64,000 nucleotides of DNA, taken from sequence record NC_111505.1, one strand, 5' to 3'. The notes beneath the pieces were generated by a model. It was not told where the DNA came from and did not search any database. It saw nothing but the letters and a program-made list of their open reading frames with translations. Below, in pieces: positions 31,755 to 32,733 of the stretch. A program made the translations under genes and the position numbers. Source of the stretch: a phage. Position 1 is the first letter of the stretch. Every line of letters starts with the position of its first letter.

Positions 31755-32733
31755 CCTTATATTCAAAGGTGGTCGCAACACCACCCTCCGCACCATTACG
31801 TGCTGCTGCATGTTACCATGCAGAGTAGACTATATCACCACCCATCTCAGGGTGCTTCGCTTTTCGAGCGCCATAAGCTTGCGCCCTACTCCCTCTCGGG
31901 ATAGTCGTTGAACTACATTACCAATCGTAATTGTTTGAAATATAGGTGTAAGTCTTACGGTCTTTTATTCCTTTAACAACACTAAAACTTACACCCCACT
32001 TTTTAGCTATTTTATTTACACACAAAACCCTATCACTGAGATCTTCGCAGATACCTATTATCTTGTGCTCACTTATCCTATTAGAGGTTGGCACTTTTCT
32101 AAAGTTAAACTCTTTAGAAATATCCGGGTATACTGAGCCATTCTTTATACCACTTACAAGCGGTTGATTGACACCAAACATTTCACAAATGTCTTTTACC
32201 CTTGCACCTTGCTCTAACAGTCTACATATTTCAAGGGCAGTAGCATCATCTAGGGACCTGTATTTATTGACATAGTCCTTTTTAAGTCCCATTTCATGAG
32301 CATGATGTGTGTTTTCCTCAGGTGTTGTCCACTCAAGGTTCCATGCGGCGTTATTTAACTTATTGCCATCAAGGTGATTTACTTGAGTTTTCACGCTAGG
32401 ATTATCATTATCAACAAAAGTCATAGCAATAACTCTGTGAACGAGCACTTGGAACTTTTTACCGTCCTCGCACAAAGTTACCATAGCATAGCCAGTCTTT
32501 TTCTGCACATTAGGATGGAGGAATTTATTAGAATACAGACTGTAAATTCTGCCATCGTATGTAGCACAATAATGATTGTAGCCTAAAAAGCCTAAATTTT
32601 TCATTTCAAACATCTCCCTACTACAGGTTCGGAAGGGTAATTATAGCTGCTGATTGTCCGTTTAGCAATCGGATTTTCCAGCAATTAACGAAGTTATTCG
32701 ACGTGCATTTCTGCACGAAGCCACTATCATTTA
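31755..32733 (-). mobile_element. group I intron in terL carrying an HNH homing endonuclease ORF
   Basis: Separates the ATPase and nuclease halves of terL. The 3' terminal ~82 nt (plus 31755..31836) are ~85% identical to the 3' end of the nrdD intron (61231..61313) and end in ...AAGG. 5' boundary uncertain (about +/-15 nt). Confidence 0.55.
31918..32604 (-). CDS. intron-encoded HNH homing endonuclease
   Basis: HNH_3-type motif VHRVIAMTFVDNDNP...NHLDGNKLNN plus C-terminal helix-turn-helix-like modules. Start placed at the second ATG (32604), which has RBS GGGAG 9 nt upstream. Confidence 0.6.
   Translation of the reverse strand: MKNLGFLGYNHYCATYDGRIYSLYSNKFLHPNVQKKTGYAMVTLCEDGKKFQVLVHRVIAMTFVDNDNPSVKTQVNHLDGNKLNNAAWNLEWTTPEENTHHAHEMGLKKDYVNKYRSLDDATALEICRLLEQGARVKDICEMFGVNQPLVSGIKNGSVYPDISKEFNFRKVPTSNRISEHKIIGICEDLSDRVLCVNKIAKKWGVSFSVVKGIKDRKTYTYISNNYDW

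Follow-up and report, generated by a model that had tools for sequence, protein, structure and literature searches.

The stretch of DNA analysed here (the window, 64,000 nt of record NC_111505.1) comes from an rV5-like coliphage of the genus Vequintavirus, is 95–99% identical to many GenBank genomes, and carries a group I intron in each of two genes, terL and nrdD, at sites designated terL-B and nrdD-B. We consider it likely that these are two separate mobile introns of class IA2, each made up of a ribozyme and an I-HmuI-like HNH endonuclease gene in its P6 loop, and that they represent different lineages of one widespread phage family, inherited or homed at their own sites. Their 3′ ends would be alike because this tail is the slowest-evolving part of the ribozyme and, more tentatively, because of recombination between introns. 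An earlier reading of the sequence (the original prediction) had noted the near-identical 3′ cores and the different HNH genes, and had proposed one intron family that spread within this genome with shuffling of the endonuclease cargo.

The shared 3′-terminal domain of the terL and nrdD introns

In a global alignment, the segment 31836..31755 (−) of terL-B is identical to 61231..61313 (+) of nrdD-B at 71 of 80 positions, with three 1-base gaps, and the original prediction had placed the two ends precisely on the terminal G of the introns (31755 and 61313). The similarity reaches beyond these 82 nt. The best local alignment of the whole inserts joins positions 840–975 of the terL insert (31894..31759) to positions 630–761 of the nrdD insert (61181..61312) over ∼138 columns, with 110 of 130 positions identical, and its score of 123 compares with 22.4 ± 2.2 and a maximum of 30 in 200 shuffles. 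The 21-nt motif at the start of the shared region, GATATAGTCTNNTCTGCATGG, is found only at these two intron ends in the 64 kb, where 0.04 occurrences are expected. Together with the covariation of the helices described below, and with the presence of three hairpins separated by conserved single-stranded joints, these values leave a negligible probability that the similarity reflects chance or a short stretch of low complexity.

Along the RNA, the shared region comprises the P7 3′ strand, J7/9, P9, P9.1, P9.2 and a single-stranded tail of 11 nt ending in the terminal G. P9 consists of 7 bp and a GNRA tetraloop (GUAA in terL-B, GGGA in nrdD-B), P9.1 pairs GCAC with GUGC across a 6-nt loop, and P9.2 pairs GGUGG with CCACC across the loop UUGCGA. 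When 16 tails of the family were folded individually, all 16 formed the same three hairpins from differing stem sequences. In an alignment of these tails, 97.6% of cells pair and both partners change in 9 of 13 pairs, which was reached by 0 of 500 shuffles and by none of the slid registers. Because MAFFT alignments of the tails are out of register inside P9.2, this count was limited to P9, P9.1 and the two outer P9.2 pairs, and the rest of P9.2 was judged from the per-sequence folds. On this basis P9, P9.1 and P9.2 are supported by covariation. The P9 loop also co-varies with P5, GUAA occurring with CC:GG and GUGA with CU:AG, which fits a docking contact; a pairing rule for this L9–P5 contact is said to have been described by Costa and Michel.

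The remainder of both ribozymes was identified directly from its helices. P7 is built in both introns from an R element (..CAACGACUA) and an S element (GAUAUAGUC), and both introns align to the Rfam RF00028 consensus. P3, P4, P5, P6, P7 and P8 are fully complementary in both, as are the hallmarks of IA2 introns, namely P7.1 and P7.2 (between P7 and P3′), P9.1 and P9.2; in terL-B all helices from P2 to P9.2 are fully paired. For P1, the exon sequence CCAU pairs with GUGG at 32724..32721 in terL-B, and the exon sequence CAUGGGU pairs with the internal guide sequence (IGS) GCUCAUG in nrdD-B, each with a U.G pair at the splice site, which in terL-B is the last exon pair. Between the central cores of the two introns, compensatory changes are seen in P7.1, P7.2, P3 and P8, and a P3 pair changes in the same manner from CUUCG/CGAAG in the window terL-B to CUUUG/CAAAG in that of Phapecoctavirus. 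Membership of both introns in one family, as originally suggested, is thus borne out by their common class, by P7.1/P7.2 and P9/P9.1/P9.2, and by shared R and S core elements.

Intron boundaries were set by intron-less alleles, i.e. terL of phage SYGMH1 and nrdD of phage ECP2303. Splicing in silico gives a terL open reading frame (ORF) of 1548 nt with the junction FIGATI/FDNP, which is collinear with the intron-less gene and has the same length, and an nrdD ORF of 2124 nt with the junction SMG/CRSFL, which is collinear with intron-less NrdD. In both introns, an in-frame stop codon lies no more than three codons past the 5′ splice site (terL AUU AAA UGA, 32731..32726; nrdD AAA CUA UAA, 60552..60560). 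Early in-frame stops in introns are thought to keep ribosomes off the folding ribozyme.

Lineages of the two introns

Identity between terL-B and nrdD-B of the window is 38% in the 5′ part (P1 to P4′, global alignment), 66% in the middle and 87% in the tail, so that the 5′ halves differ, as had been stated; a MAFFT alignment of the whole inserts gave no useful information on the ORF and 5′ regions. Comparison with nrdD-B of Phapecoctavirus gives a similar profile for the window terL-B (41, 56 and 88%), and its tail is likewise 88% identical to that of nrdD-B in Justusliebigvirus. In contrast, the 5′, middle and tail identities of the window terL-B are 81, 80 and 70% with terL-B of Phapecoctavirus, and 88, 83 and 74% with terL-B of an IMG/VR contig (L021). 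In terL-B, P2 is a hairpin closed by a GNRA loop and P4 is UUGCUG/CAGCAG, as in DNA-polymerase introns, whereas nrdD-B lacks P2 and its P4 is ACGGGG/UCCCGU, as in the T4 sunY and td introns, and BLAST finds matches to td. Nucleotide similarity is direct to the T4 nrdD and td introns, and the 5′ part of nrdD-B is 89–92% identical to the nrdD introns of Phapecoctavirus and Justusliebigvirus.

The endonuclease genes give a corresponding picture. Their DNA aligns at random level, and the proteins show 28% identity over the N-terminal 95 residues only. Each endonuclease has hundreds of relatives closer than the other one in the window, and they therefore belong to different lineages of one large endonuclease family, in agreement with the earlier observation that the two introns carry different HNH genes. 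The terL-B endonuclease is 62% identical to that of Phapecoctavirus terL-B and 40% to that of the Vequintavirus DNA-polymerase intron; the nrdD-B endonuclease is 47–50% identical to nrdD-intron endonucleases of a Vibrio phage (47%) and of FelixO1-like phages. Moreover, the introns have positional orthologues elsewhere, terL-B in Avunavirus, Phapecoctavirus and contig L021, and nrdD-B in Phapecoctavirus, Justusliebigvirus, a Vibrio phage and FelixO1-like phages, and inside each lineage the endonucleases are orthologous too (62% for terL-B, 47% for nrdD-B). Taken together, segment identities, P2, P4 and endonuclease kinship define two intron-plus-endonuclease lineages of one family.

The original prediction amounts to a different history, in which one intron was copied between genes of this genome by ectopic transposition, the ribozyme being kept and the endonuclease then swapped. 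Such copying would account for the common family and architecture and for the position of both endonuclease genes in the P6 loop; the tail identity of 87–88% is the highest of the 86 between-site tail comparisons sampled (median 73%), and all three introns with a type 1 P9.1 hairpin (terL-B, nrdD-B and that of the DNA polymerase) co-occur in Vequintavirus genomes. Nevertheless, we regard it as very improbable. The parts of the ribozyme are far from equally similar, and P2 is present in one intron alone. Other subfamilies have each intron-plus-endonuclease unit at the corresponding site, the exon tract next to the nrdD intron is probably of foreign origin (see below), and the endonuclease differences follow those of the 5′ ribozyme parts and do not stand alone. 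Finally, the tail identity within the genome (87%) is not above that between the window terL-B and nrdD-B of another genus, Phapecoctavirus (88%), which speaks against recent copying inside this genome followed by an exchange of cargo. Spread within the genome was thus not upheld for this pair. Shuffling of cargo holds across the family, where close ribozymes bear unrelated endonucleases (HNH in P6 of nrdD-B, GIY-YIG I-TevII in P9.1 of T4 nrdD), and does not describe the terL and nrdD introns themselves.

Outside the window, the DNA-polymerase intron of Escherichia phage EmilHeitz has in common with terL-B a P1–P2 region (87% over 46 nt), the target ACCAU directly before the splice site, the P9.1 hairpin and an endonuclease with 40% identity. 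This polymerase/terL-B pair fits spread within a genome better than the terL/nrdD pair does.

Conservation and possible exchange of the P9–P9.2 module

Several parts of the tail are widely conserved. The introns of T4 nrdD, the SSE121 polymerase and RisingSun td have the same P9 hairpin. Throughout the family, the P7′ strand is conserved, and the tail UGAACAUAAUG and a GCGA loop in P9.2 are the rule. In a pattern scan, the 14-nt P9.1 hairpin GCACGUAAUGGUGC was found in ∼20 otherwise diverse IMG/VR introns (loci L024–L062), including those of T7-like DNA polymerases. Since it is kept at the sequence level in so many introns, a specific tertiary or protein contact is suggested rather than a neutral helix. 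Its identity in the three Vequintavirus introns had suggested recent exchange between them, but the hairpin was dropped as a marker because of its occurrence in these diverse introns; hence, it is the discordance of the whole tail that carries the argument for exchange.

This discordance was directly observed. At informative sites in the 5′ and middle parts, the Vequintavirus terL-B sides with Phapecoctavirus terL-B over nrdD-B by 48:12, whereas in the tail it sides with nrdD-B by 20:7. The maximum chi-square for this switch is 26.8, a value reached by 0 of 20,000 permutations. The tail sites that are still terL-like are those of J7/9 and of the last ∼10 nt by the splice site, and thus the nrdD-like block corresponds to P9–P9.2. 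Moreover, the four terL-B lineages have three tail types, each nearest to a different non-terL-B intron, so that some P9–P9.2 exchange between introns is hard to avoid. A pattern scan for terL-B 5′ halves returned three contigs only, of which one is the new lineage L021, and for this reason the direction of exchange is not polarised.

Conservation without any exchange would require that the tail is ancestral to both lineages and was kept at 87% by purifying selection, while the terL-B tails of Phapecoctavirus and L021 drifted or were replaced. This reading draws support from P7′, P9, P9.1, the GCGA loop of P9.2 and the 3′ tail sequence, which are nearly unchanged in many unrelated phage introns, and from the nrdD-B lineage, in which the tail is also the most conserved segment (94%, compared with 83–89% for the other two). 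However, the cross-lineage tail identities (87–88%) exceed those within the lineage (67–77%) for three of the four terL-B lineages, Phapecoctavirus terL-B and the SSE121 polymerase intron have one and the same P9.1 version, GUUCAUAAGAGAAC, and the P9.1 version of L021 resembles the terL-A hairpin. We therefore consider pure conservation unlikely. As the variant P9.1 hairpins match those of other introns, every scenario calls for some exchange of modules, though not necessarily in the lineage of the window.

A more general proposal, to which we would give slightly less than an even chance, is that P9–P9.1–P9.2 of phage IA2 introns is an exchangeable module, which may be swapped or homogenised by homologous recombination in one genome or in a co-infected cell. 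The ribozymes would then be natural mosaics, and terL-B of the Vequintavirinae would combine a 5′ body of polymerase type with a tail of nrdD type. As part of the same proposal, guide sequences shared by related introns at different sites may count as circumstantial support for the view that introns of protein-coding phage genes reach new sites by reverse splicing: nrdD-B and T4 nrdD have GCUCAUG in common, and terL-B and the Vequintavirus DNA-polymerase intron both target ACCAU. So far, spread by reverse splicing has been supported mainly by introns of rDNA (2014 review, PMC3984707).

Several points weigh against the interpretation preferred here, i.e. two mobile IA2 introns of different lineages whose tails are alike by slow evolution and perhaps by recombination. 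The introns of the window score below the RF00028 gathering score of 50 bits, with two partial matches of 34.2 and 25 bits for terL-B and 32.9 bits for nrdD-B, and the Rfam scan at the gathering threshold called no intron in the window; they surfaced only with E-value thresholds. These low scores arise because the ORFs split the model, and the ORF-less alleles reach 92.7 bits (terL-B of phage WM) and 70.4 bits (nrdD-B of phage PD06). The nrdD-B protein matches Pfam HNH_3 with 20 bits, under the cut-off of 24.8, and an I-HmuI NUMOD-like domain with 18.5 bits, also under cut-off. Splicing has been seen by reverse-transcription PCR for HNH-containing terL and polymerase introns of Certrevirus CB7 (PMC7344957), which is only a related genus, and for the introns of the window it is predicted from their helices and spliced ORFs. 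The contrast in the informative-site test is inflated because the 5′ alignment of terL-B with nrdD-B is barely meaningful, and the recombination that we infer, as well as its direction, draws on ∼80 nt and a handful of lineages. Furthermore, as P9 and P9.1 are family-wide modules, part of the discordance could come from constraint, together with tails that changed faster or had modules replaced in the remaining terL-B lineages.

With these reservations, the preferred interpretation suggests the following course of events. The ribozyme would excise itself from the mRNA after the end of the exon, ACCAU for terL and CAUGGGU for nrdD, has paired with the IGS to form P1, the 3′-terminal G would set the 3′ splice site, and the ligated message would encode intact TerL or NrdD. 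The shared 82 nt would serve as the 3′-terminal domain of the ribozyme, with the P7 3′ strand in the guanosine-binding core, the GNRA loop of P9 docking on P5, the P9.1 and P9.2 hairpins, and then the single-stranded tail presenting the terminal G. The endonuclease would nick an intron-less allele of a co-infecting phage, and repair would copy the intron in. More tentatively, terL-B of the Vequintavirinae may have obtained its P9–P9.2 module of nrdD-B type through recombination between introns.

Organisation, probable mobility and known relatives

Table 1. Positions in the window of the two intron-containing genes, their introns, ribozyme parts and endonuclease genes
Feature	Position	Strand	Details
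terL exon 1	32734..33476	−	ends ...GCAACCAU at the 5′ splice site; from ORF list and BLAST break against the intron-less SYGMH1 allele
terL-B group I intron, IA2	31755..32733	−	979 nt; U1 to terminal G at 31755
terL-B 5′ ribozyme part	32636..32733	−	from helix complementarity; P1 3′ strand/IGS 32726..32721; P2 32716..32703 (GAAA loop); P3 5′ 32693..32689; P4 32684..32679 / 32652..32647; P5 32673..32657; P6 5′ 32646..32636
terL-B HNH homing endonuclease gene	31918..32604	−	228 aa; P6 loop; stop codon inside P6 3′ strand
terL-B central core	31837..31922	−	P6 3′ 31922..31913; J6/7 and P7 5′ (UUCAACGACUA, P7 31906..31902); P7.1 31901..31890; P7.2 31886..31866; P3 3′ 31859..31855; P8 31854..31839
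terL-B 3′-terminal domain	31755..31836	−	P7 3′ strand (GAUAUAGUC, P7 31832..31828); P9 31823..31806 (GUAA loop); P9.1 31803..31790; P9.2 31787..31766; tail UGAAUAUAAGG to terminal G
terL exon 2	30950..31754	−	from ORF list, intron-less allele and spliced ORF
nrdD exon 1	59391..60551	+	ends ...AGCAUGGGU
nrdD-B group I intron, IA2	60552..61313	+	762 nt; no P2; terminal G at 61313
nrdD-B 5′ ribozyme part	60552..60632	+	IGS 60563..60569; P3 5′ 60575..60580; P4 60584..60589 / 60608..60613; P5 60594..60604; P6 5′ 60620..60632
nrdD-B HNH homing endonuclease gene	60654..61163	+	169 aa; P6 loop; stop 61161..61163 inside GACUAA
nrdD-B central core	61134..61232	+	P6 3′ 61134..61146; P7 5′ 61158..61162; P7.1 61163..61182; P7.2 61186..61206; P3 3′ 61212..61217; P8 61218..61230
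nrdD-B 3′-terminal domain	61233..61313	+	P7 3′ strand; P9 61246..61263 (GGGA loop); P9.1 61266..61279; P9.2 61282..61302; tail UGAACAUAAUG
nrdD exon 2	61314..62276	+	first ∼39 nt (61314..61352) strongly diverged from the intron-less Vequintavirus allele

The features of both genes are collected in Table 1. No further group I introns were found in the 64-kb window by the RF00028 scan at E-value thresholds and a motif scan. A tRNA-like gene of 99 nt (35170..35268, −) lies inside a tRNA cluster at 35014..35737; ARAGORN gives it a 4-base anticodon and no amino-acid identity, and it scores 37.5 bits with the Rfam tRNA model, with an insertion of 26 nt in the variable region.

The terL-B endonuclease has a Pfam HNH_3 match of 28 bits, above the cut-off, and a helix-turn-helix. 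In phmmer searches both proteins matched the I-HmuI structure (PDB 1U3E), terL-B with E = 3.6e-11 and nrdD-B with E = 6e-8 over the full length. The last codons of the nrdD-B endonuclease gene span P6 3′ and J6/7 and extend into P7. The Shine–Dalgarno sequence (AGGAG) of this gene is paired in a hairpin, ACUCCU...AGGAGU (window 60632..60645, −12.4 kcal/mol, z = −3.2), which suggests translational control of the endonuclease by the hairpin; for the terL-B endonuclease gene, there was no signal of ribosome-binding-site sequestration (z = 0.16).

Intron-less, ORF-less and ORF-containing alleles were observed among Vequintavirus genomes at both the terL-B and the nrdD-B sites, in independent combinations, and Vequintaviruses and their relatives have at least four intron sites in the two genes (terL-A, terL-B, nrdD-A and nrdD-B). 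In the window, the terL-A site after FDEG, seen occupied at three loci and ORF-less in rV5, is empty, and so are the nrdD-A site after VNG, where introns of 257 nt (ORF-less) and ∼798 nt (with an HNH ORF) occur at three loci, and the terL-C site after HQG, occupied in Avunavirus (positions 1–280 of locus L005). In phage A142 and typing phage 14, the P8 loop of terL-A holds an ORF similar to Endo VII. The ORF-less terL-B of phage WM (266 nt) is not a clean ORF deletion, as the stretch from the P5 loop to P6 differs from that of the window (32671..32636).

The start of nrdD exon 2 (61314..61352) encodes SKYSDPVTGEE, compared with GKYVTPEGDE in the intron-less allele, and has one extra codon, whereas the remaining exon is 96–98% identical. 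Co-conversion of flanking exon sequence is known from homing (PMC2988022). The diverged tract is probably a co-conversion tract left by homing from a foreign nrdD gene, and it possibly also makes the target resistant to the endonuclease. This tract and the patchy presence of the introns in near-identical genomes are indirect signs that the endonucleases may nick or cleave intron-less alleles and promote homing.

Among known introns, the IA2 intron of T4 nrdD (sunY) belongs to the same ribozyme lineage as nrdD-B, with identities of 76–82% in the 5′ part and 70–75% in the middle and with the same host gene. Its P9 hairpin, CUGCAUGGUGACAUGCAG, is identical in nrdD-B of Phapecoctavirus, Justusliebigvirus and the Vibrio phage, and the window copy is one loop base off (GGGA for GUGA); the IGS GCUCAUG, the P7.1/P7.2 layout, the P9.2 loop and the 3′ tail are also common to T4 nrdD and nrdD-B. 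However, the T4 intron is inserted at AYEY/EVNTL, ∼105 codons upstream of SMG/CRSFL, after UAUGAGU rather than CAUGGGU, and has the GIY-YIG endonuclease I-TevII in the P9.1 loop instead of an HNH gene in P6. This pattern would be compatible with IGS-guided spread to a new site.

The window terL-B is also the HNH-containing terL intron of rV5, at the same site and with the same endonuclease (96% identity over the region), but rV5 has in addition a second, upstream ORF-less intron of 320 nt at terL-A, which the window lacks. The terL gene of rV5 was described as being in three parts, one with a homing endonuclease (Kropinski et al. 2013, PMC3606486), and that paper makes no comparison between terL and nrdD introns. 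The DNA-polymerase introns of SPO1 and SP82, with the nicking HNH enzymes I-HmuI and I-HmuII, likewise have an HNH endonuclease within a phage group I intron of an essential gene; they differ in host genes and phages, and the endonucleases of the window are likened to I-HmuI by sequence alone. Recombination between T4 introns was reportedly studied by Bryk and Belfort in 1990. In T4, in events selected in the laboratory, homologous recombination at conserved core sequences common to different introns of the genome gave chimeric introns (Hall, Liu & Shub 1989, Nature 340:574). The same mechanism is proposed for the nrdD-type tail of terL-B, where the evidence is comparative, in the form of discordant similarity. 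The consensus view is that endonuclease genes invaded introns repeatedly (PMC3984707).

The elements described here are already known or annotated and belong to a well-studied class, and several GenBank records already list nrdD as split and accompanied by HNH ORFs. The finding, although real, is for the most part ordinary, and what it adds is limited to the discordance of the tail and to the guide sequences common to related introns at different sites. For annotation, it means that terL and nrdD are each a single intron-interrupted gene rather than a set of fragments, and that both HNH ORFs are intron cargo. With three allele states at four sites in two genes and with orthologues in several other genera, these phages offer a natural series for the assembly and movement of mobile introns. 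If the exchange of tails is true, it would be a natural counterpart of the laboratory recombination between T4 introns, in which the peripheral domain and the core of a ribozyme have different histories and the L9–P5 contact is kept by co-variation.

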